From the IMG/VR virus record IMGVR_UViG_3300019132_000012, positions 1 through 64,000 of that record: a stretch of 64,000 nucleotides of DNA, one strand, 5' to 3'. Both the position numbers and the translations under genes were made by a program. This DNA comes from a virus. A model generated the notes under the pieces. It saw nothing but the letters and a program-made list of their open reading frames with translations. It searched no databases and was not told the origin of the DNA. The number at the start of each line of letters is the position of its first letter. Position 1 is the first letter of the stretch. Below are positions 2,333-37,982 of the stretch, piece after piece.

Positions 2333-3733
2333 TCACACGGCGACCGGCGCCGAGATGCGTTCGTGGGACTCGTAGCCGACGAGCACGACGTCGTCGGCGG
2401 TGATGGTGTCGATGGTGAAGGGGCGCTTGGCGAAGCCGATGCGCGGCAGACGGAGCGGCTCGCGGTTGAGCTGCTGTTTCACCTGCACCATGTGGTTGTT
2501 GTAGATGTGCCCGTCGCCGATGGTGTGGACGAACTCACCGGCCTGCAGACCTGTCAGCCGAGCGATGATCTCGGTGAGCAGGGCATACGAGGCGATGTTG
2601 AACGGCACGCCCAGGAAGGCATCGGCCGAGCGCTGATAGAGCTGGCACGACAGCTTGCCGTTGGCGACGTAGAACTGGAACATCATGTGGCAGGGCGGCA
2701 GCGCCATCTTGTCGACTTCGGCCGGGTTCCAGGCCGAGACGACAAGGCGGCGGCTGTCGGGATTGCGCTTGATCTCCTCGATCACCCACTTGAGCTGATC
2801 ATAGGTCGATCCATCAACACCGTGCCACGAGCGCCATTGAGCCCCATACACTCGACCCAGATCACCATCCTCAATCAACTCCAGACGAGGCAGATAATCT
2901 GGAACGTCCAGTTCAGTGAACTCCCATCCCGCAAAAGACTTGTTGTTGCCCTTGAGGGTGGACGGAACGCCTTCCTTCACGAAACGACTCAAGGTCGATG
3001 TCGGCATGCCGATGCGACGGGATGCTTCGGCTTGGCTCAGATAGAGGCGCTTGATGCCGTCACCATCCACAACGCTGACGGGCTTGGCCGACTTCGTGTA
3101 GAGATTGTTCTCGTCTGTGCGGAGCCAGACCGATGTCTCGGGACCATACTGACGGGAGCCGTAATAGTCCTTGTCCAGCTCGAACTCGTCCCAGTTCTTC
3201 TGCTTGTACCACCAGTGAGGGATCTTCTTCACGCCCTCGATAAAGGCGCGGGGATCATGCCATGACGGATGAACCGACACACCATTTGCTCCATAGAGAT
3301 CGAAACGGTGATAGTTTTCATCGTAGCAGCGCCGCATCATACGGACCCAGGTATCTGCGAGCTTACGATCTTCGCCTTCCGGTAGGTTCAGACCGGCATA
3401 GCTGAAATCACCCGTATAAGGGGCGTATTCGGCCTCCTTTGGCGTAACCCACACCATGTTGCGGTCGAAGTTGTACGGACGACGCCACTCGTCCCAGATC
3501 GTGACGCCGTTGTCGTTCAGGTACTTGATGTTGGTGTCGCCGCGCAGGAACCAGATCAGCTCGTGCAGGATCGATTTGAAATGCACCTTCTTCGTGGTGA
3601 CCAGCGGAAATCCCTTCGAGAGGTCAAAGCGCATCTGGTAGCCGAAGATCGATCTCGTGCCGGTGCCGGTGCGATCAGACTTGTCGACGCCGTTGACGAG
3701 GATGTGCTGTAGAAAATCGTGATACTGCTTCAT
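2333..3733 (-). CDS. thyA: Thymidylate synthase ThyA with an in-frame insertion of about 206 aa
   Basis: MKQYHDFLQHIL..DRTGTGT..IWDEW then, after the insert, GDLGRVYGAQWRSW..SAWNPAEVDKMALPPCH..YQRSADAFLGVPFNIASYALL..GDGHIYNNH. These are all canonical ThyA blocks. Start taken at MKQYHD; the 98 aa upstream extension in the track looks like shadow sequence. Confidence 0.9.
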   Translation of the reverse strand: MKQYHDFLQHILVNGVDKSDRTGTGTRSIFGYQMRFDLSKGFPLVTTKKVHFKSILHELIWFLRGDTNIKYLNDNGVTIWDEWRRPYNFDRNMVWVTPKEAEYAPYTGDFSYAGLNLPEGEDRKLADTWVRMMRRCYDENYHRFDLYGANGVSVHPSWHDPRAFIEGVKKIPHWWYKQKNWDEFELDKDYYGSRQYGPETSVWLRTDENNLYTKSAKPVSVVDGDGIKRLYLSQAEASRRIGMPTSTLSRFVKEGVPSTLKGNNKSFAGWEFTELDVPDYLPRLELIEDGDLGRVYGAQWRSWHGVDGSTYDQLKWVIEEIKRNPDSRRLVVSAWNPAEVDKMALPPCHMMFQFYVANGKLSCQLYQRSADAFLGVPFNIASYALLTEIIARLTGLQAGEFVHTIGDGHIYNNHMVQVKQQLNREPLRLPRIGFAKRPFTIDTITADDVVLVGYESHERISAPVAV

Positions 3734-4119
3734 GCGGTTGGATCCGTCAGGGTTCCGAGGTTGAGGAACACGTCGGCAGGGCCGTCGTATTCGATGTGCG
3801 TGATGAAGGAACGGCGCACGAAGGGCATGAAGGCCCGGTAGGTCTTGGCGCCGCCTGCGATCCAGATGTCCCGCTTGGGGTCCATCTCGGTGAGGGTCTT
3901 GATCAGCCCTTCGGGATCGATGTCCCGGCGCCAGCCGACGAGGAGTCGGCCTTCGAGGGAAGGGACATGGGATAGGGTGTTGCCACCCATGATCACGAAG
4001 CCGTTCATGGTCATTTTCTTGAACCACTTCAGGTCTTCGGCATCATGCCAGGGCAGCTTGCCCATCAGCCCGAGCTGGCCCGACTTCCCGACCGCTGCGA
4101 TCAGGTTGACGCTGCCCAT
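3730..4119 (-). CDS. folA: Dihydrofolate reductase (short form, 129 aa)
   Basis: VNLIAAVGKSGQLGLMGKLPWHDAEDLKWFKKMTMNGFVIMGGNT matches the DHFR IGxxGxLPW / MGrkT pattern. Overlaps the thyA start (ATGA-type coupling). Confidence 0.8.
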   Translation of the reverse strand: MGSVNLIAAVGKSGQLGLMGKLPWHDAEDLKWFKKMTMNGFVIMGGNTLSHVPSLEGRLLVGWRRDIDPEGLIKTLTEMDPKRDIWIAGGAKTYRAFMPFVRRSFITHIEYDGPADVFLNLGTLTDPTA

Positions 4120-5090: not shown

Positions 5091-5148
5091 TTTGCATTTC
5101 GATTAGCGGTCTATTTGCATTCAAGCAATCGTTAAGTTGCAATCAAGG
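5091..5148 (-). promoter_or_regulatory. Intergenic motif cluster; candidate promoter TTGCTT-N17-TAATCG in gene sense
   Basis: Plus strand tttgcatttc..ctatttgcattcaagcaatc..ttgcaatcaagg. Gene sense reads CCTTGATTGCA..TTGCTTGAATGCAAAT..AAATGCAAAGGAG. Confidence 0.5.
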
Positions 5149-8550: not shown

Positions 8551-11500
8551 CTACGAGCAGCCGGTCGTCTCGCCGCACGTCATGCACTTGTTGCAGGTGC
8601 CGTTCCTCACGAGCGTGAAGTTCGAGCAATTCGTGCAGGCGTCCCCGGTGTAGCCCTTCAGCTTCGCCTCGGCTCGCGCATCAGGCTTGACAGCTTCCGC
8701 GACGAACTTCGACACCGCTGCAGGCTCCGGAGCGTTGACCACGAGATCAACCTTCACGGGGAAGGGGATCGTCTCGGCGGCCGGAGCCTTGCCTTCCGCC
8801 AGACCGCCGCCGACCGAAGTCGAGAGCGTCTCTGCCGGAACGTGGGCCAGGTCTTCGCGGTCGAGGTAGTTGATTGCGAGATCCCGGAAGACGAAGTCGA
8901 TGATCGACGTCGCGCTCTTCAAGCGGTCGTGGCCCTGGACGAAGCCGGAGGGCTCGAACTTGAAGAAGGTGAACGCATCGACGAACTCATCGAGCGGCAC
9001 GCCGTGCTGCAGGCCGAGGCTCACAGCGATGGCAAACGCATTCATCATCGACCGGAAGGCCGCGCCTTCCTTGTGCATGTCGATGAAGATCTCGCCGAGT
9101 CTGCCATCCGGGTAGTTGCCGGTGCGCAGGTAGACCTTGTGGCCGCCGACGACTGCCTTCTGGGTGTAGCCCATACGCTTGGCCGGGAGCTTCTCACGCT
9201 GCCGCACGAGTTTCTCGACGATCTGCACGACCTGGGCGGTCGGGGTCGCGGCCGGAGCCTCATCCTCGTCCTCCTCATCGTCCTCGACCAGGGCCGCATT
9301 GAGCGGCTGCGAGAGCTTGGAGCCGTCGCGGTAGAGAGCATTGGCCTTCAGCGCCAGCTTCCAGGACAGGAGGTAGGCCTCCTTGATGTCCTCGACGGTG
9401 GCGTTGTTGGGCATGTTGATCGTCTTGGAGATCGCACCCGACAGGAACGGCTGGCAGGCCGCCATCATGCGGATATGTGCCTCGGTCGAGATGAACTGCT
9501 TGCCCTTCTTGCCGCAGGGATTGGCGCAGTTGAACACCGGGTAGTGCTCCGGCTTGAGGTACGGAGCACCCTCGATGGTCATCGTGCCGACGCAGTAGTC
9601 GTTGGCCCGCTCGATCTCTTCCTTGCTGAAGCCCTTTGAGGCCCAGTCGGCCAGGAACGAGATGTCGAAGGCGGTCTCGACCTGTGGCATCACCGTCTTG
9701 AATTCCTCGTCCGACAGTGCGGCGACGAAGGAATCCGGCAGGCGGCGGTGACCCGTCGCATAGCGCACGATCTCGTCGATCTGACCATCAGAATAGCCGA
9801 GGGCTTTCAGTGCCGGAGGCACCGACTGGTTGATGATCTTGAAGTAGCCGCCACCGGCCAGCTTCTTGAGCTTCACCAGCGCGAAGTCCGGCTCGACACC
9901 CGTCGTGTCGCAGTCCATGACGAGGCCGATGGTGCCCGTGGGAGCCAGGACCGTCGTCTGGGCATTGCGGTAGCCGTACTCCTCCCCCAGGGCCAGAGCG
10001 CGATCCCATGCCTCTTCCGCGTGGTCGGAGAGGTCGGAATAGGCTTCCGGGATGCCGTCGTGATCGAGCGGAACCGGCTTGATCGAGAGACCGACATAGC
10101 CGTCTTTCCAGCCGTAGGCGGCCTCGCGGTGGTTGCTGATCACCCGGAGCATCGACTCTCGGTTCTCCGCGAATTTCGGGAACGGTCCCAGCTCCCGTGC
10201 CATCTCGGCCGACGTGGCATAAGCCGTGCCGGTCATGATCGCAGTGAGAGCCCCGGCGATGGCGCGGCCCTCGCGGCTGTCATAGGGGATGCCCATGGTC
10301 ATCAGCAGGCCGCCGATGTTGGCATAACCCAGACCCAGAGTCCGGTAGTCATAGGACAGCTGTGCGATCTTCTCGGACGGGAACTGCGCCATGTAAACCG
10401 AGATCTCCAGGACGATGGTCCAGAGGCGGTTGACATGGATATAGCCCTCGACGTCGAACTCCTTCGTGTCCTTGTCGTAGAACTTCAGCAGGTTCGAGGA
10501 CGCCAGGTTGCAGGCCGTATCGTCGAGGAACATGTACTCGGAGCAGGGGTTGGAGCCCCGGATCCGGCCACCGGCAGGGCAGGTGTGCCAGTCGTTCATC
10601 GTCGTATTGAAGTGCAGGCCAGGATCGGCCGACTGCCAGGCGGCATAGGCGATCTTGTCCCACAGGGCGCGGGCCTTGACGGTCTTCGTGAACGACTTGT
10701 CGACGCGGCCGGTCAGCGTCCAGTCCTCGTCGTTCTCGACGGCCTTGAGGAAGGCGTCGGTGAGAGACACGGAGTTGTTGCTGTTCTGGCCGGATACCGT
10801 CTCGTAAGCCTTCGACTGCCAGTCGGTGTCGTAGACCTCCGTGGTGAAGGGCTGGCCCTGCTCAGCCAGCATGATGACGCGCTGGATGTAGTTCTCCGGG
10901 ATCATGGCCTTCTTGGCAGCCTTGATCGCCTTCTTGAGTTCTTTCCCGGTCTCGTAGGCAGGCCATTCCGGGTTGTTGGCCGCGACTGCCGCGTCATAGA
11001 CATTCGCCAGATGCTTCGCCATGATCTTGGAGCCGGTCACGAGCGCCGCGACCTTCTGCTCCTCGATCACCTTCCAATCGATGAAGGCCTCGACGTCGGG
11101 GTGGTCGATGTCGACGATCACCATCTTCGCCGCACGGCGCGTCGTACCGCCCGACTTGATCGCGCCAGCGGCGCGGTCGCCGATCTTCAGGAACGAGAGC
11201 AAGCCCGATGACTTGCCGCCGCCCGAGAGACGCTCACCTTCGCCTCGGATGTCGGAGAAGTTGGAGCCGGTGCCGGAGCCGTACTTGAACAGGCGAGCCT
11301 CGTTCGTCCAGAGGTCCATGATGCCACCAGGATTGACCAGGTCATCGCCGACCGACTGGATGAAGCAGGCATGCGGCTGCGGACGCTCGTAGGCCGAGGT
11401 CGAGCGGACCACCATCTGCTTGGCTTCGTCGTAGTAGAAGTGACCCTGGGCGGGGCCGTCGATGCCGTAGGCCCAGTGCAGGCCGGTGTTGAACCATTGC

Positions 11501-11964
11501 GGGGAGTTCGGCGCCACCATCTGGTTGGCGAGCATAAACCGCAGCTCGTCGAAGAAGGCGCGGGCCTGATCTTCAGCGATGCGTGCATCCTTATCGGGAT
11601 TGGCGAAATACCCGCCCTTCCAGCCCCAGTATGTCCAGGCCCCGGCCAGGCGGTCGAACACCTGCTTGGCGGACATCTCGGGTCCGGTGAACACGCCCTC
11701 GACGGCGGCAACGGAGCGTTGCAGCCATTCCGGCACCCCTTCCTCGGCGACCTTGCGCAGCTCGGCTGGGACACCGGCCTTGCGGAAATACTTCTGAGCC
11801 AGAACGTCGGTGGCCACCTGCGACCAGTTCGCGGGCACCTCGATGTTCTCCATCTTGAAAACCGAGGATCCGTCCGTGTTACGGATCTCGGACGTGGCCA
11901 TCTTCCAATCCAGCAGCTCGTAGGGGTCGCGGCCCGCGATGGTATAGCGGCGTTCAATCTTCAC
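8551..11964 (-). CDS. nrdJ: Class II (adenosylcobalamin-dependent) ribonucleotide reductase
   Basis: 1137 aa. Blocks such as [25 protein letters not shown] and the C-terminal Cys-rich tail [28 protein letters not shown] are typical of monomeric NrdJ. Confidence 0.9.
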
Positions 11965-23768: not shown

Positions 23769-24110
23769 CTAGGTCGGCTGGATCCGGTCGACCACAGGGC
23801 TCCAGTATTCCTTGTACATCGGGATGGCTAGATCTCGATTGATCCGGTGGCGCCGGAAGAGAATTTCAACAGCGGCCAAAGCAGAGTTACAATAAATCAC
23901 AGCAAGACTCTCATCATCGCCGATGATCTGGTCGAGGTTGTTCAGAATGTCCGACGTGACCGACTCGGCGTTTCTGTGAGCATGGCTCTGATGTTCTTGG
24001 TTCATGACGCTTTCTGCTTTCATCTGACTGATACTCTCCGAGTTTGGCGATAGACCCAAAGTCCTATCGACCATAACCCAATGAGAACAAAAAGAGAACG
24101 GTTTTTCCAT
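23769..24110 (-). CDS. Hypothetical protein, low GC (start uncertain)
   Basis: AT-rich ORF divergent from the repressor. Alternative starts at MKAESV and MNQEHQ. Confidence 0.4.
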   Translation of the reverse strand: MEKPFSFCSHWVMVDRTLGLSPNSESISQMKAESVMNQEHQSHAHRNAESVTSDILNNLDQIIGDDESLAVIYCNSALAAVEILFRRHRINRDLAIPMYKEYWSPVVDRIQPT

Positions 24111-24233
24111 TTGCAATCGCGCAAAAACTGAATTAGTTGTGGTCAAGTTATCGGAACGGAACAAAATCCGGTTCGCCCTGGGAACTCGTTTGTATTTGCA
24201 TGGTTATGATGACGGTTAGTGCAAACGCAAATT
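24111..24233. promoter_or_regulatory. Immunity-region operator/promoter cluster (three motif-like sites)
   Basis: ttgcaatcgcgcaa (TTGC-N6-GCAA), tatttgcatgg and gtgcaaacgcaaatt, between divergent genes. Confidence 0.5.
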
Positions 24234-24315
24234 CGGCAATCTCGTACCCCTGTGGCCGTCCAGCGAGACCGCAGGCAGGACGATTATGCCAAGTGCTCAA
24301 GGGAATGGAGGAGTT

Positions 24316-25050
24316 ATGCTTACAATGATCGAACAAAAGGGCCGGGAGGCATCAGTGACGGAAAGTCCTCGTGATGTAGTTGTTGAGTGGCTGCAGCACA
24401 TTATGAAGGTAAAGGACTGGACCGGAACAGATATTGCTCGAAAGTCAGATCTAGCGCCGTCGACTGTTCTACGAATACTGAACGATCCGCAACACAAGTT
24501 CGTTCCGGCTCTGAAGACACTTCAGAAAATTGCCACGGGTACCGGCTACCCGATCCCCCGCAAGGTCACCGACGCGCTTGGAGCACCGAGCATCTCGACC
24601 GGGGAGGGTAAGGAATTCGCAGGACGCACCTTGGCTCGGGAAATCTCACCCCCACCAGCCGCGCCACGCCGGAGCCCGATGGTCGAAGTCAAGCATGTGT
24701 CATCGCTGCCGTCGTCGCTGCAGCCCATCGACAAGCGGGAGATCCATGTCGCCGCGCTGCCGCATTGGGAAGGCGACGACACCGCGTTTGCCTTCTACAT
24801 GCCGGATAATGCGCTGGATCCGTGGGCACCGGCCGGTACCCTGATGTACGCCACCAAGCGCCGCGATCCGGTCGGCGGCGACTGGGTGCTGGTGATCGAC
24901 CAGGCCGGGAAGTCACGGGTGCGCTTGTTGCTGAGCATCGATGAGAAGGGCCTGTCTCTCTCGAAGAGCCATCCGGCAACCGAAGACGAGAAGATGACCT
25001 TCGATGAGATCAAGGAACTGGCCATCGTCGGCGCTGTCATGCGAATCTAA
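24316..25050 (+). CDS. CI-like repressor: N-terminal XRE HTH plus C-terminal S24/LexA-like domain without the Ser/Lys dyad
   Basis: WTGTDIARKSDLAPSTVLRILN is the HTH. The C-terminal FAFYMPDNALDPWAPAGTLMYATKRRDPVGGDWVLV aligns to V-GDSM-P..GD.v.v with Ser replaced by Ala, and the Lys position reads SRVRLL. ATG follows GGAGGAG. Confidence 0.75.
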   Translation: MLTMIEQKGREASVTESPRDVVVEWLQHIMKVKDWTGTDIARKSDLAPSTVLRILNDPQHKFVPALKTLQKIATGTGYPIPRKVTDALGAPSISTGEGKEFAGRTLAREISPPPAAPRRSPMVEVKHVSSLPSSLQPIDKREIHVAALPHWEGDDTAFAFYMPDNALDPWAPAGTLMYATKRRDPVGGDWVLVIDQAGKSRVRLLLSIDEKGLSLSKSHPATEDEKMTFDEIKELAIVGAVMRI

Positions 25051-25068
25051 GTGCACCAGAGCCGCCTG

Positions 25069-25103
25069 AGCCCGCAGTCCTCATCGGCTGCGGGCTTTTT
25101 GTC
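25069..25103 (+). terminator. Rho-independent terminator
   Basis: agcccgcag-tcctcatcgg-ctgcgggct followed by ttttt. Confidence 0.75.
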
Positions 25104-25132
25104 GTCCGCAATAACTAGAAAAGGTTTGAGTG

Positions 25133-25540
25133 ATGGCTCAGCGAGTTGAGCGCGGAGTGCCTGTTGTGCCGATCCGCAACCTGTCACGGTTGCCGAATAA
25201 CCTCTCAGCCCAGACCGAGGCCACGACACGGTGCCCCTTCCCACTGATCGACGACGAGACAGCCTTCGCCTTCTACATCCCCGAGGAATATGTCGGATTG
25301 CACAAGGACGCCCTGGCCTTCGCCAGCCAGCGACGGGATCCGATCCCCAACGACCTGGTGCTGTTCGAGCTGAAGGATGGCGAGCGCAGGTTCCGATGCG
25401 TCTATGAGGTAAAGAGTGATGGGTATGTCACGATAAGACCTTTGAAGTTTCCTTTGAAATCAGCGAAGATCGAGAAAGAAACCATCAAGTTTCATGAGAT
25501 TGACCAGATGAGTGTGGTCATGCTGGTCGTAAAGACCTGA
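25133..25540 (+). CDS. Stand-alone paralogue of the repressor C-terminal (S24-like) domain, no HTH
   Basis: DDETAFAFYIPEEYVGLHKDALAFASQRRDPIPNDLVLF aligns with DDTAFAFYMPDNALDPWAPAGTLMYATKRRDPVGGDWVLV of the repressor. Lower GC. Confidence 0.65.
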   Translation: MAQRVERGVPVVPIRNLSRLPNNLSAQTEATTRCPFPLIDDETAFAFYIPEEYVGLHKDALAFASQRRDPIPNDLVLFELKDGERRFRCVYEVKSDGYVTIRPLKFPLKSAKIEKETIKFHEIDQMSVVMLVVKT

Positions 25541-25628: not shown

Positions 25629-26168
25629 TTACGCTGCTTTCTTGTTGAAGTAATCATCGACGAGAGCCTTAGCCTTTGCAAAGAGCGCGGTGTTGCCATC
25701 CGCCAGGAGGGGCAGCAGATCGCGTTTCTCCCGCATGTAGACCACCGCGAAGTCGGGGTCGTGCAGCGTGATCGAGCCGGTGTTGCTGATCAGGTCGGCC
25801 AGCTTGATCGTCTGACCGGCCGCTGAGGCTTTGGCCAGGTGCTCCCGGTCGATGGCCTTGCGGGTGGCGCGGTTGCCGTCCTCGGGCCTCGACGGGTCCG
25901 TTACCTCGTCGACGAGCTGGGCGACACGGTCGCCGAAGACCAGGCGGATATGGCTATTCTCGATGGCCGCGTTGTCTTCGACCGTATCGTGCAGCCAGGC
26001 CGCCGCGAGGATCGCCTCATCGGTGACGCCTGCATCCTTCAGGATCCCGACCACGGGGGCCGGATGGCAGATGTACGGCTCGGCCGTGTACTTTCTGGCC
26101 TGGCCTGCATGAGCCGCCGTGGCGAAGGCGAAGGCGGCCCGTTCGAGTTCAGAGTGAGTCAGGTGCAT
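25629..26168 (-). CDS. SpoT/RelA-type HD-domain hydrolase (small alarmone hydrolase-like)
   Basis: AHAGQARKYTAEPYICHPAPVVGIL...AAAWLHDTVEDN matches the (p)ppGpp hydrolase HD motif. Start taken at MHLTHSE after GGAGG. Confidence 0.75.
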   Translation of the reverse strand: MHLTHSELERAAFAFATAAHAGQARKYTAEPYICHPAPVVGILKDAGVTDEAILAAAWLHDTVEDNAAIENSHIRLVFGDRVAQLVDEVTDPSRPEDGNRATRKAIDREHLAKASAAGQTIKLADLISNTGSITLHDPDFAVVYMREKRDLLPLLADGNTALFAKAKALVDDYFNKKAA

Positions 26169-26177
26169 GGTACCTCC

Positions 26178-26208
26178 ATTTGCATTCATGCAAATTTTGC
26201 GCTACATG
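26178..26208. promoter_or_regulatory. Inverted octamer ATTTGCAT-TC-ATGCAAAT overlapping candidate promoter TTGCAT-N17-TACATG
   Basis: Sits between the divergent HD hydrolase and T5orf172 genes. The -10-like hexamer ends 6 nt before the ATG at 26215. Confidence 0.5.
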
Positions 26209-26214
26209 TAGGGC

Positions 26215-26691
26215 ATGTCAGATGCCAACACCCAACATGTCTGTGGTATGCCGTGGTTCGAGGCCCGTCAGGAGATCGACCTCTTCCGCGAACTTGAATA
26301 CGCCTGTGTCTATGCGCTTGGACCCGCAGAGGGGGCACCTCTGCGGATCGGGATGACCGCCGACCCCCGGCGCGAGCTGGGGATCCTGCAAGCCGAGAAC
26401 TGGCAGGATCTCATCGCCCACGAGATCGTCTGGACGGCGGGGAAGCCGCTGGCGCGACGGCTCAAGGCCGAAGTCCACCGGCTCCTGGACGGAGAGGGGC
26501 GGCGCATCCGCGCCGACTGGTTCCGTCTCGAACGGGATGAGGCGTGGCCGCTGATCAAGACGGCCGCCGCCACCCTCAAGATCCCGACCTTCTCTCACCA
26601 GGAGATGATGCGCCGGGTCCGCTCACTGCGGGAGGATCGGATCGCCCAGGCCCTGGCGTCCGCAGGGTTCTCGCATTTGCATTCGCATTGA
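26215..26691 (+). CDS. GIY-YIG-like T5orf172/MUG113-domain protein
   Basis: CVYALGPAEGAPLRIGMTADPRRE...AEVHRLL...ADWFRL follows the T5orf172 pattern. Confidence 0.55.
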   Translation: MSDANTQHVCGMPWFEARQEIDLFRELEYACVYALGPAEGAPLRIGMTADPRRELGILQAENWQDLIAHEIVWTAGKPLARRLKAEVHRLLDGEGRRIRADWFRLERDEAWPLIKTAAATLKIPTFSHQEMMRRVRSLREDRIAQALASAGFSHLHSH

Positions 26692-26709: not shown

Positions 26710-27126
26710 CTACTCCCTCTGCAAGGATGACCAGACTGGAACCACATTGTTCCGCCTGATGAACGTGTTCTCCAGGGCCTTCTGGAGATCGTTCAGAAAG
26801 TCAATCGACACGGTCGTCGTGTCGGCTTGAAATTCATCCTTCAGCCGTTTCAGCTTCGACAGCCACTCCTTGGCCATCTCGGCTTGACCGGGAGGCAGTT
26901 TTGTCTCCCATTCACTCTTGTCGACTTCGAGCTGTGCTTTCTTGATCTCGAAGTCGAGGTAGTCGTGCAGTTCCTGGATCCTGACCTTGACGCTCTCCAG
27001 GATCGGCTCGGCTTGAGAAAGAGCCGCACAGATCTCTTCGATGATCTCGGGCAGCTGTTCCTGAAACCGGGGATTGATCTCGGGTAGCGACGGCTTAGGC
27101 GGAACCCTTGTCGTCGTTGGCACCAT
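26710..27126 (-). CDS. Hypothetical protein (138 aa), low GC
   Basis: ORF predicted helical/coiled-coil from composition. Confidence 0.55.
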   Translation of the reverse strand: MVPTTTRVPPKPSLPEINPRFQEQLPEIIEEICAALSQAEPILESVKVRIQELHDYLDFEIKKAQLEVDKSEWETKLPPGQAEMAKEWLSKLKRLKDEFQADTTTVSIDFLNDLQKALENTFIRRNNVVPVWSSLQRE

Positions 27127-27379
27127 CCTCCTCCTTCCTGTTCACGGCGGAATGGTCCTCCTCCTGCGGCTTCCAGGGGGCGAGGCCGCGTTCGAGCGCC
27201 GACAGGGCCAGCGCCACGATGCGGCTGCAGCCGCGCTTCTCGTACTTCAGGACGGCGGCATCGCTGATGCCGAGCCAGTCGCCGACCTCCTTCTGGGTCA
27301 GCTCCCGGCTGATCCGCCAGAGCCGGAACTCGTCACCGGACAGAAACGGTTCCTGCTCTCTCGAAGCACGTTCTTCCAT
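27095..27379 (-). CDS. Cro/CI-type (XRE) HTH regulator (94 aa)
   Basis: LTQKEVGDWLGISDAAVLKYEKRG. Internal start MEERASRE. Confidence 0.7.
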   Translation of the reverse strand: MEERASREQEPFLSGDEFRLWRISRELTQKEVGDWLGISDAAVLKYEKRGCSRIVALALSALERGLAPWKPQEEDHSAVNRKEEDGANDDKGSA

Positions 27380-27487
27380 GGTCGCCCCTCTTCTCCCTGA
27401 CCGGGGATGCTCAAAGCCTTCACTTGTCATGATCAATGCGTTCCGTTCGCGCCGTGGAGCTGAGTTAAGGTTAGTCATTGATCGGGT

Positions 27488-35828: not shown

Positions 35829-37982
35829 TTAGGCTCCGATGATGATGGGCTCCTGGGCGTCCTCCACGGCCTGGGCCGCCTGCTCCCGTTCTTCGCAGGC
35901 GAGAAGCCGGAAGTATTCGTTCAGAGCCGTCTGACGCTTGTTCTTGGTGTCGTAGCCATAGCCGTAGTGATGATCGGCGATCACCCGGAACAGCGGGTAC
36001 TTCTTGATCATCGCTTGGTACTTGTCATTGATCGCCTGCGTCGGGCTCGGGAAGGTCGGCTCCTGGACGGTGTGACCGATCATCTTCAACGCCTCGATGG
36101 CGCGGTCGGTGTCGGTCCGCGTGTAGGTGCCGCGCTGCAGCCGCTCGATGATCGGCATGACCTCCTCCTTGAAGGCCTTCATCGGGGCAGGAGCCTGCGT
36201 CAGGTCGTATTCCCTGACGAACTGCCGGACGTGGGCATCGAGACTCGACTCGGTGCGGCCGTAGAACTCGTCGCGGGTGGAGAAGTCTACCTTCGCCTCG
36301 ATCAGCGGCTTGAGCTTGTCGGCAATGAACGTCCAGCCTCCGGTGAGAACATCCTTCTCCTGTTTGATCAGGATCTCGGTATCCTCCGGGAGCACCTTCA
36401 GTTCCGCCGCCAGCTTGAGGAAGCGCTCCATCGTGCCTTGCGACACGCGGATGCCCCGACCGATGAACCAGTTGGCATCGTACTTGCCATGGCCATATTC
36501 GGTGTCGCGGTAGACATAGAAGCCACCGCCAGCCAGATCGACATCCTCGGCCTCGATGTGCATGCCGTACTGAGTGGCCGTGATGGTCCGGCGCTTGCGC
36601 ACGGTCTTCGCCCGCTTCTCGGTCGGAGACTTCTTCTCCAGCTTGAAGTCGTCGAGTGTGATGTATCCGGCCGGATTGCCGATCTGGGTCAGGACGCTCG
36701 CCAGATCGTCGCGCTTGACGCGGATCCAGAGGAATCTCTCGTCGTCGAGTCCGGCCGCCGCGAGGCGTTCCTTCGAGCGGTACGGGTTATGCTCGATGGC
36801 GATCTTGAAGCCCTCCAGGGTACGGAAATCGACCTTGCCGCCCTCAAACTTCTCGACGCTCCTGCCGCCATGGCTGACCTTCATCATCTTGGCGTGCAGC
36901 AGCTCCGCGCCCGCCGCTCGCAGATGCAGGCCACGCCACTTGATCTGCGAATGCAGCCAGTCCTGGCGCCACTGACCGAGATTGCCGGTCTCGTCATAAA
37001 AGATCCTGCAGGCCGCGAAGTAACTGTCGGCCGCTTGGACCTTGGCGCGGATCTGTTCCAGGTTTGACGTCTCGTACTGCCGCACCAGACGCTCCAGCGT
37101 TGCCTTCGTGCGCTCGTCATAGGCCAGGGCCTCGCGGGAGAGCGTCACGGAGAGCGATCCGATGGGGGCCTCGAACAGCACCGCATCATCCTCGTTGAGC
37201 ATCTGCGAGCCCTGGATCTGACGCAGATCGAAGGGATACATCACCGGACCCAGTTGCACATGCGGCCCGTCGAACGGCACCGTGTGAGCGTGATAGCGCG
37301 TCCAGCCCTCGCCTTTCATGTACACTTTGGGCTCGCCCCATTCGATCTCCGGGAAGACCTTCGGGCGCGGATGGAACGACCAGTAGATCTCCTTTGCCCG
37401 ATGGTGGAAGGCGTAGATGTCGTTGCGCGACACTGAGAACGACACCTCGACGCCGGTCTCCTCGTCCGTATCCTCCTCGTGGATCATGCGGAGCTTCGGC
37501 TTACCGGCCTGATCGAGCGACATCGTCCAGATCCGTTTCTTGCCCTCGGACCAGGTCGTGATCGTGAACATGCCGGTGCCGCTCTCGCCGATCAGGTAGG
37601 CGAAGGGCGACATCTTGCCCAGGCCCCAGCCACCGGCCTCTTTGTCGGACAAGCGCTTGGTCGAGGCATAGAGACGAGAATAGACGTCCTCCATGACCTG
37701 CTTGGTCATGCTGTGGCCGTAGTCACGGATGCGGAAAGTCGGGTTGAGGTTGGTCGGCAGGAAGATACGGGGCACCTTGTCCTCGGGCACCTCGTCGCCG
37801 AAGCGGGCCACCGAGGCGTCCCAGGCATTGGTGGCGAGTTCCCGGATCGGGTAGCCGATCTTGTCCTTCGCCAGGCCTGACATCTGGGCAAAGAAGGCAA
37901 CGCCGTTGGCCTCGATGGTGACGTCGATTTCGTCCATCACGCCAGCGGTGATGTCGGTGTGTTCGCGCAGGGCGAGTTTCAT
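35829..37982 (-). CDS. GHKL (Bergerat-fold) ATPase, RIIA-like (717 aa)
   Basis: IRELATNAWDAS (N box), IRDYGHSMT (G1-like) and GGWGLGKMSPF (G2-like). The size and N-terminal ATPase resemble phage RIIA-type proteins. Confidence 0.6.
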   Translation of the reverse strand: MKLALREHTDITAGVMDEIDVTIEANGVAFFAQMSGLAKDKIGYPIRELATNAWDASVARFGDEVPEDKVPRIFLPTNLNPTFRIRDYGHSMTKQVMEDVYSRLYASTKRLSDKEAGGWGLGKMSPFAYLIGESGTGMFTITTWSEGKKRIWTMSLDQAGKPKLRMIHEEDTDEETGVEVSFSVSRNDIYAFHHRAKEIYWSFHPRPKVFPEIEWGEPKVYMKGEGWTRYHAHTVPFDGPHVQLGPVMYPFDLRQIQGSQMLNEDDAVLFEAPIGSLSVTLSREALAYDERTKATLERLVRQYETSNLEQIRAKVQAADSYFAACRIFYDETGNLGQWRQDWLHSQIKWRGLHLRAAGAELLHAKMMKVSHGGRSVEKFEGGKVDFRTLEGFKIAIEHNPYRSKERLAAAGLDDERFLWIRVKRDDLASVLTQIGNPAGYITLDDFKLEKKSPTEKRAKTVRKRRTITATQYGMHIEAEDVDLAGGGFYVYRDTEYGHGKYDANWFIGRGIRVSQGTMERFLKLAAELKVLPEDTEILIKQEKDVLTGGWTFIADKLKPLIEAKVDFSTRDEFYGRTESSLDAHVRQFVREYDLTQAPAPMKAFKEEVMPIIERLQRGTYTRTDTDRAIEALKMIGHTVQEPTFPSPTQAINDKYQAMIKKYPLFRVIADHHYGYGYDTKNKRQTALNEYFRLLACEEREQAAQAVEDAQEPIIIGA

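Follow-up and report, generated by a model that had tools for sequence, protein, structure and literature searches.

How does a temperate phage leave lysogeny when its repressor is not expected to cleave itself, and what might a free-standing copy of the repressor's own C-terminal domain, encoded directly behind it, contribute to that decision? Both questions are raised by a locus in a viral DNA stretch of 64,000 nucleotides (positions 1 to 64,000 of IMG/VR record IMGVR_UViG_3300019132_000012, hereafter the window). In this locus the gene for a 244-aa (amino acid) CI-like repressor, F (24316..25050, + strand), is followed by S (25133..25540, + strand), whose 135-aa product is a paralogue of the F C-terminal domain on its own. 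Non-cleavable CI-like repressors are common, and how they are switched off is known for a few phages only. With a duplicate of the repressor's domain set free, the locus is a two-gene module that is compact, conserved and open to testing.

The F gene was defined from its open reading frame, Pfam matches, homologues, a structural model and profile alignment. A GGAGGAG Shine-Dalgarno sequence lies upstream of ATG 24316, and the closest homologue (P0001, 85% identical) begins with the same MLTMIEQ, which supports this start; the first in-frame ATG lies earlier, at 24286. The protein is laid out as an XRE-type helix-turn-helix (HTH) domain (residues ~18–87), an Arg-rich linker and a LexA/S24-fold C-terminal domain (~117–244). 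Alone, F stays below threshold against the Pfam HTH families (18 bits, cut-off 23); its relatives match HTH_26 (68 of 68) and HTH_3 (67 of 68), and the five-helix N-terminal domain of the F model resembles lambda repressor and other XRE domains. Across the family, the putative recognition helix, LAPSTxLRxLN, varies little or not at all. F has 158 detectable homologues (45–85% identity), nearly all from Bradyrhizobium genomes, soil metagenomes and the 121-kb Bradyrhizobium phage BDU-MI-1, and many of them lie on 100–122-kb contigs. F is best explained as the maintenance repressor of a ~109-kb, integrase-bearing temperate phage, an immunity role suggested by position and by analogy.

Sequence by itself barely detects the S24 kinship of F and S. 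S matched no Pfam family, and neither protein reached the gathering threshold of Pfam PF00717, which was weakly matched by 51 of 68 aligned F relatives (best E=1e-5), and phmmer with single sequences and a search with the family profile retrieved nothing from the PDB sequences. Models were more telling. The AlphaFold model of F, built on a 68-sequence alignment, has a mean predicted local distance difference test score (pLDDT) of 86 and comprises the five-helix N-terminal domain, a disordered linker and a beta domain; the S model has a pLDDT of 87 and a predicted template-modelling score (pTM) of 0.80. Using Foldseek, the top PDB matches of F were full-length lambda repressor (3bdn), CI C-terminal fragments (2hnf, 2ho0, 8gmu), LexA and UmuD', and those of S were the lambda CI C-terminal domain (1f39, 8gmu) and LexA, with UmuD' among the matches. 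For both models the Foldseek probability was 1.0, with target-normalised TM-scores of ~0.55–0.69 against domain-only PDB chains. In a viral structure library the S model matched the C-terminal halves of phage CI/LexA-type repressors (E down to 2.5e-5, query-normalised TM-score up to 0.71). Together with the recurrent weak Pfam matches of the relatives, these fold searches support a shared S24 fold, the LexA/CI C-terminal beta-domain fold, in the predicted structures of both proteins. BFVD also contains short proteins of other phages that consist of an S24-like fold only (A0A6G5YBB1, 141 aa; A0A8S5RZP3, 125 aa; A0A2I6TCF5, 91 aa), and domain-only S24-like copies may therefore reach beyond the F/S family.

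Can F still cleave itself? The original prediction, made from the sequence alone, described an XRE HTH joined to an S24/LexA-like domain in which the catalytic Ser position reads Ala (MPDNALDP) and the Lys position is replaced (SRVRLL). Both open reading frames are as it gave them, its quoted strings (these two and DDETAFAFYIPEEY...) were all found, and the family HTH matches and the best Foldseek matches (lambda CI and LexA) bear out the domain assignment. By profile-profile comparison we aligned F and S with a small three-sequence LexA/CI/UmuD alignment, in which the LexA and CI sequences were verified against the PDB. The resulting alignment is weak (E=0.04–0.07) and agrees with the earlier register, placing F FAFYMPDNAL and S FAFYIPEEYV on LexA FLLRVSGMSM, and KRRDP..GD on LexA HKTQDVRNGQ. 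In this register the Ser nucleophile (LexA S119, CI S149) is replaced by A166 in F and Y53 in S, and the Lys general base (LexA K156, CI K192) by R203 in F and R88 in S. Neither protein has a Ser, Thr or Lys at these two positions or up to two residues away from them (F 164–167 DNAL and 201–205 RVRLL; S 51–55 EEYVG and 85–90 RRFRCV), so the loss of the dyad is robust to a register error of one or two residues, and an intact dyad at shifted positions, the case that would have overturned the earlier claim, was not seen within this margin.

The cleavage site has gone as well. The strand that carries Ala-Gly (or Cys-Gly) in cleavable proteins is V-S-S-L-P in F and L-S-R-L-P in S; the family as a whole conserves S-x-L-P and no A-G there, a correspondence drawn from strand order in the models rather than from residue-level superposition. 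Arg stands at the Lys position in 119 of 121 F family members, and an alignment of 35 F and S domains shows it in 31; the Ser position is not conserved across the 121 members (S 57, T 50, A 8). As read from these alignments, dyad loss is a trait of the whole F family and not a quirk of the window phage. With the Ser, Lys and Ala-Gly features each tested and none present, we reject F and S as active S24 autopeptidases. Since F has neither a Ser/Lys dyad nor an Ala-Gly site, RecA-stimulated self-cleavage by the S24 mechanism is not expected, judging from established S24 enzymology, and F joins the known non-cleavable CI-like repressors as a new case.

What, then, is S? BLASTP aligns F 118–243 with S 7–134 at 29% identity over 132 aa (E=2e-14), a similarity well beyond what chance would give; the earlier description of S as a diverged copy of the F C-terminal domain without a DNA-binding domain is upheld by this alignment and by the CI-like fold of the S model. 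S still has the basic segment of the linker and the strand of the former cleavage site, and shares with F the S-x-L-P strand, D-x-T-A-F-A-F, R-R-D-P and the Arg at the Lys position. It is 27–33% identical to F-type domains and, in fold alignments, ~10–17% identical to LexA, CI and UmuD. Mean identity is 27% between an S and its own F, 29% between S and other Fs and 27% among S proteins, against 42% among F domains. S being no closer to its own F than to other Fs, a recent local duplication is ruled out as its origin. In a neighbour-joining tree S falls outside the F clade in three groups that partly mirror the grouping of the partner Fs; the tree is simple, with long branches, and does not prove S monophyly. 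This pattern fits one or a few old duplications inherited with F, followed by faster S evolution and repeated loss.

Is S maintained? Between the window and its closest relative (locus L052), the nonsynonymous and synonymous divergences (dN and dS) are 0.255 and 1.57 for S (dN/dS ~0.16) and 0.14 and 1.15 for the F C-terminal domain (~0.12); dS is saturated in this comparison, and the ratios are rough. By these rates, purifying selection clearly acts on both genes. A pseudogene or a frameshifted F fusion is ruled out by the different reading frame, the terminator between the genes, the dN/dS of ~0.16, the conserved length and the occurrence of S in at least 13 diverged clusters. We did not use P0123 (123 aa, equal to F residues 122–244) as evidence for an internal-start isoform, a truncated gene call explaining it equally well.

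S proteins recur, and they recur with F. A word-indexed search with S returned a single relative, and back-translated pattern searches for S in viral and genome contigs gave no match. An exhaustive search of 1.84 billion representatives, with a profile built from S, P0122 and the F C-terminal domain, yielded 67 family clusters, about one third of them domain-only proteins of ~125–143 aa that open with a short basic segment followed by a V/I-R-x-L-S-x-L-P strand. Genomic contexts, taken from exact-protein look-ups, were available for 14 distinct S (the window, L036, L038, L041, L042, L043, L044 and L046–L052). In 13 of them the gene directly upstream on the same strand is a family repressor, or its C-terminal tail on a cut contig. 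Because of this conserved synteny a functional link between F and S is strongly indicated, as far as gene order can indicate one. The S loci span at least two phage backbones, one BDU-MI-1-like (DnaB-type primase/helicase, RuvC-like gene, T5orf172) and the other, in L048, with a DEAD helicase and YqaJ. S is nonetheless an accessory: it was present in only 1 of the 37 repressor loci fetched through F, and no S gene was found in BDU-MI-1. Nor is the arrangement special to this repressor: dyad loss runs through the whole family of ~120 proteins, most of which have no S and must do without one.

The junction between the two genes takes several forms. The S start codon overlaps the F stop codon or comes directly after it, at 0 nt (TAATG, ATGA), in L036, L043, L050 and L051; S follows F by 10–16 nt in L046, L048 and L049, and lies 56–88 nt away behind a GC hairpin in the window, L052, L044, L047 and L041; L038 has a 65-nt gap with a weak hairpin only. 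In the window the gap holds a GC-rich hairpin followed by a T-run that resembles an intrinsic terminator (25068..25102, + strand), with a stem of 12 pairs, including 8 GC, at 25068..25097. This stem recurs in L052 with a longer T-run (T8), in line with the strong terminator noted earlier after F, and GC hairpins fill the same gap in L044, L047 and L041. By its sequence, the window hairpin would reduce the transcription that reaches S, or would mark where the F mRNA ends. Only 35 nt separate this terminator from the S start, and no separate S promoter was found.

How might the switch sense DNA damage, if not through F? The alphaproteobacterial SOS box is GTTC-N7-GTTC (PMC9578287). An exact copy, GAACAAAAAGAGAAC (24085..24099; GAAC-N7-GAAC on the + strand and GTTC-N7-GTTC on its complement), precedes ATG 24286 by 201 bp and the F start at 24316 by ~230 bp. 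Of 37 non-redundant loci, 22 have an exact box in the same orientation within 120–260 bp before the first in-frame ATG of F (129–243 bp where measured), or ~130–245 bp, mostly 190–245, before the repressor start (other positions include L001 7474, L002 7743, L038 5011 and L047 537). It is usually the sole copy in ~16 kb, and its GAAC repeats are fixed while the N7 spacer is free to vary. The background is 13 boxes in 1.14 Mb of strand-bp, giving a nominal binomial P of 3e-52 for loci that are not independent. This conserved putative site suggests that host LexA takes part in the switch of these phages.

The SOS box is embedded in a conserved array. Ten nucleotides from it lies a perfect palindrome, TTTGCAATCGCGCAAA (24110..24125), a candidate operator (O1) containing a -35-like TTGCAA; a second operator-like element, TTAGTGCAAACGCAAA (O2, 24216..24231), aligns with a conserved TTAGCATCCnnGCAAA upstream of F in relatives. 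The order in the aligned region is SOS box, A-tract, TTTGCAATCGnGCGAA (with TTGCAA), ~20 nt, TTAGCATCCnnGCAAA, ~130 nt and the F start. We found no convincing -10 element for a sigma-70 promoter around the SOS box and O1 in either direction. In several loci (L001, L011, L013, L018, L031 and others) the long, conserved leader of the repressor gene contains, ~60–90 nt upstream of the start, a short ATG frame (MTAN...F-R, ~10–20 codons) with a conserved TTTCAGA, which could encode a leader peptide or merely be a conserved DNA site.

The SOS box might also serve a divergent gene. A small gene without known domain, orfD (23769..24005, − strand; ~78 aa if read from ATG 24005), starts ~80 nt from the box in the window, and homologues of ~78–85 aa occupy the same position in L038 (4695–4928, − strand), L047 (187–444, − strand), L033, L005 and L048, so that the box lies ~80–95 nt upstream of the orfD start. 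From this position orfD is a candidate LexA-controlled anti-repressor or Cro analogue. orfD is absent from BDU-MI-1-like loci, and loci without it, BDU-MI-1 included, still have the SOS box.

Copies of the O1 palindrome are dispersed over the phage. With at most one mismatch, TTTGC-N6-GCAAA occurs 15 times in the window against 1.2 expected and a maximum of 5 in shuffled sequences (16 nt each, at 5114, 19737, 20406, 24110, 26179, 29143, 31235, 34423, 37998, 42915, 54490, 57240, 60255, 61101 and 61132). The consensus is TTTGCATTCAWGCAAA, extended to TTTGCATTCA(A/T)GCAAA, and most copies sit in short spacers 10–50 nt upstream of gene starts. Nearly all related loci have 4–9 copies per 16 kb, and the motif is also found in BDU-MI-1 and distant relatives. 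Because the recognition helix of F is invariant, the dispersed palindromes are plausible as multi-site operators of F; they could instead serve another regulator or be a phage promoter element. The C1 sites of P1 and the stoperators of L5 are known multi-site operators of this general kind. A second small HTH protein (~101 aa; 27095–27400, − strand), ~1.6 kb right of S and with weak HTH_31 and HTH_3 matches, is by these matches another candidate regulator of the switch or of the palindromes.

How could S act on such a switch? LexA and lambda CI dimerise via their C-terminal domain, and CI also forms tetramers and octamers through it; an oligomerisation role of the corresponding F domain is inferred from these two proteins. 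We tentatively favour, while placing it somewhat short of an even chance, the view that S is a constitutive built-in attenuator that would form mixed F/S oligomers in the manner of SinI/SinR or of microProteins. The F C-terminal domain would be a pseudo-peptidase, precluding RecA-stimulated self-inactivation, and S an ancient duplicate of it placed in the repressor's own transcription unit. Because of this placement S is expected to be made in lysogens alongside F. In the window clade the terminator hairpin should hold S below the level of F, and in other clades S would be translationally coupled to F. S would then join F via the shared domain, yielding mixed oligomers with fewer DNA-binding heads, or cap the F dimer-dimer contacts, and the lowered occupancy or cooperativity of F at its operators would set the threshold for induction. 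The DNA-damage signal would probably come separately, from host LexA acting on the conserved SOS box beside the operators. Mixed oligomers are favoured because translational coupling and tight synteny are typical of co-assembling proteins.

This attenuating role has to be weighed against others, beginning with the switch that the original prediction had in mind, in which S is an induction-specific anti-repressor: the terminator would keep S off until more read-through, by antitermination or from a derepressed promoter, allowed it to heterodimerise with F and cause induction. The strong hairpin and T-run of the window clade, conserved in L052, and the SOS box upstream of the F-S unit speak for such a switch. 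It does not stand up well, however, in at least seven other loci, where no terminator intervenes, S begins at or within the F stop codon or abuts it and, because of this, could not be expressed without F. More read-through would moreover raise F too, no promoter of its own was found for S, whose start is only 35 nt from the terminator, and the SOS box would provide a more conventional route to induction. S being in the repressor's unit and co-made with F, a constitutive modulator fits better; we therefore think S more likely a built-in partner or attenuator than a damage-induced anti-repressor, and hold the induction-specific role to be improbable. A rather different role, as a decoy or sponge, seems unlikely to us without being far-fetched. 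Here S would bind not F but a factor aimed at the F domain, be it an anti-repressor of the phage itself or of a co-resident prophage, a protease or a ligand, thereby buffering the lysogen against accidental induction and sharpening the threshold. Trans-acting anti-repressors that target non-cognate, non-cleavable repressors are documented in Gifsy prophages (PMC3121763), S has retained the F-invariant motifs around the former active-site cleft, and its gene order implies co-expression with F in the lysogen. Yet no anti-repressor gene was identified in the window, the retained residues could be plain fold-core residues, and translational coupling is seen more typically between proteins that form one assembly.

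S could also help F rather than hinder it, as the co-repressor Lxc/Bof helps C1 in P1. As a positive co-factor within F oligomers, it would aid cooperative binding or DNA bridging among the dispersed palindromes, whose excess in the window and conservation across the phage family would give such bridging a substrate, and its co-expression with F, translationally coupled in several loci, would suit this role. A headless protein adds nothing obvious to bridging, however, and most related phages have the same dispersed motif and no S; we judge a co-factor role quite improbable. We give least credence to a target other than F, with S pairing with host LexA, sitting on RecA filaments or acting like UmuD. 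The fold of S is that of LexA and UmuD', and the SOS box in the switch region implies a phage that listens to LexA; but S resembles F-type domains far more than LexA, CI or UmuD in sequence, no umuC-like gene adjoins it, and its strict synteny is with F, all of which makes a non-F target very improbable.

Several observations weigh against the attenuator that we favour. A fixed-ratio inhibitor in the operon of its own target is an odd design, and co-expression would be no less expected of a positive partner or a decoy. The residues common to F and S line the former active-site cleft, not necessarily a dimer interface, which hints at a shared ligand over mutual binding. Most F family members, BDU-MI-1 included, have no S, which must be dispensable for repressor function. 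One S-type gene (P0139, L042, 195–608) has no F directly upstream and is preceded by a minus-strand gene that ends 36 nt before it; this gene may have its own promoter or result from a rearrangement. Finally, F is named an immunity repressor, and the palindromes its operators, from position and analogy.

How does F-S compare with known switches? F has the plan of lambda CI and LexA, an N-terminal HTH, a linker and an S24-fold C-terminal beta domain, with 3bdn the best match for F and 1f39 for S; it differs in having no Ser/Lys dyad and no Ala-Gly site, and in a sequence that falls below the Pfam S24 threshold. Coliphage 186, through Tum, and CTXphi, through RstR and LexA, are known cases of LexA-wired induction. 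Gifsy-type prophages combine non-cleavable CI-like repressors with LexA-controlled anti-repressors (Lemire et al. 2011, PMC3121763). As in these systems, F is not expected to be cleaved and the SOS input would arrive via a putative host LexA box. Here, in contrast, the box lies inside the immunity region by the putative operators, no anti-repressor was identified, and the extra protein is a co-transcribed paralogue of the repressor's own domain.

Closer in principle are small antagonists that imitate part of their target. SinI antagonises SinR through a surface conserved between both proteins (PMC3163267), and in arbitrium phages AimX blocks the oligomerisation of AimC (bioRxiv 10.1101/2025.11.23.689978). 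In both pairs the antagonist is small, has no DNA-binding domain and either looks like or occupies the domain by which an XRE repressor oligomerises, and the heterodimers abolish DNA binding; the SinI and SinR genes are also adjacent. S, by analogy, would be homologous to the presumed oligomerisation domain of F and likewise lacks a DNA-binding domain. Their domains, however, are small helical hooks and that of F and S is an S24-fold beta domain. SinI and AimX are also regulated separately from the repressor, unlike S, which lies downstream in the repressor's own operon and in the same orientation, often overlapping the F stop codon, and whose interaction with F is putative. Truncated-paralogue antagonists such as TrlR of TraR (Agrobacterium), H-NST of H-NS, the Tn5 inhibitor protein and plant microProteins tune or poison the full-length regulator via mixed oligomers. 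H-NS truncations have been reviewed (PMC7074111). These systems have other folds and regulators than F and S, and none is known to involve a phage CI/LexA-type domain. UmuD and HumD of phage P1 are stand-alone S24 domains without a DNA-binding domain, and UmuD has the catalytic dyad and works with UmuC. S differs from UmuD in having no dyad and no UmuC partner and is tied to a repressor gene; its neighbours are the repressor, an HD phosphohydrolase and a T5orf172-like gene. Hex of phage 434 is made from the same PRM-type mRNA as the repressor, is present in lysogens and modulates repressor inactivation and lysogen stability (PMC3564112). Hex thus resembles S as a second protein alongside the repressor, but it blocks RecA-stimulated autocleavage, which is irrelevant for the dyad-less F.

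F-S is best classed as a new form of the domain-mimic partner idea of XRE repressors, and in the literature searched we found no description of a module with a free-standing pseudo-S24 paralogue behind a repressor. A broader and more doubtful proposal is that F-S is an undescribed phage immunity module, in which a dead-S24 repressor works alongside a co-transcribed microProtein derived from its own sensor/oligomerisation domain, and the F:S ratio depends on translational coupling or on the attenuating terminator. This ratio, together with LexA beside the operators, would decide lysogen stability. Among large temperate phages whose hosts are soil Hyphomicrobiales, this would be a widespread and conserved alternative to RecA cleavage. 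Should S act on F, the principle known from SinI/SinR and microProteins would hold for the LexA/CI fold too, and dead S24 domains would have a use. The SOS box and the dispersed palindromes, for their part, are concrete DNA targets for studying the switch of poorly studied ~110–120-kb temperate phages of agriculturally important rhizobia.

The window is part of a large temperate phage or prophage of Bradyrhizobium-type soil bacteria, related to BDU-MI-1, with which it shares 72% nucleotide identity over the primase and single-stranded DNA-binding protein region. We call it temperate because of this relationship and of a tyrosine integrase gene (58–1248, − strand). It originates from a biocrust metagenome, and the window's own S protein is encoded on a contig of 108,979 bp. 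No tRNA genes or Rfam families were detected within the 64 kb. On one side of F lies a replication module on the minus strand (primase/helicase, replication initiator), accompanied by a RuvC-like gene on the plus strand, and on the other side a long run of minus-strand genes. The genes flanking S on its right encode an HD-domain phosphohydrolase (25629–26189, − strand) and a T5orf172/MUG113-like protein (26215–26691, + strand); the former recurs beside S in L047 and the latter in L038 and L049, and a TTTGC-N6-GCAAA copy lies inside the 25-bp divergent spacer between the two. Further genes encode the large subunit of ribonucleotide reductase (1137 aa; 8551–11964, − strand) and a RIIA-like protein (35829–37982, − strand). 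A 564-aa open reading frame (2333–4027, − strand) has two stretches of thymidylate synthase split by an HNH endonuclease domain (residues ~219–380) and, from this arrangement, resembles a thyA gene that a homing-endonuclease-type insert interrupts or is fused to.

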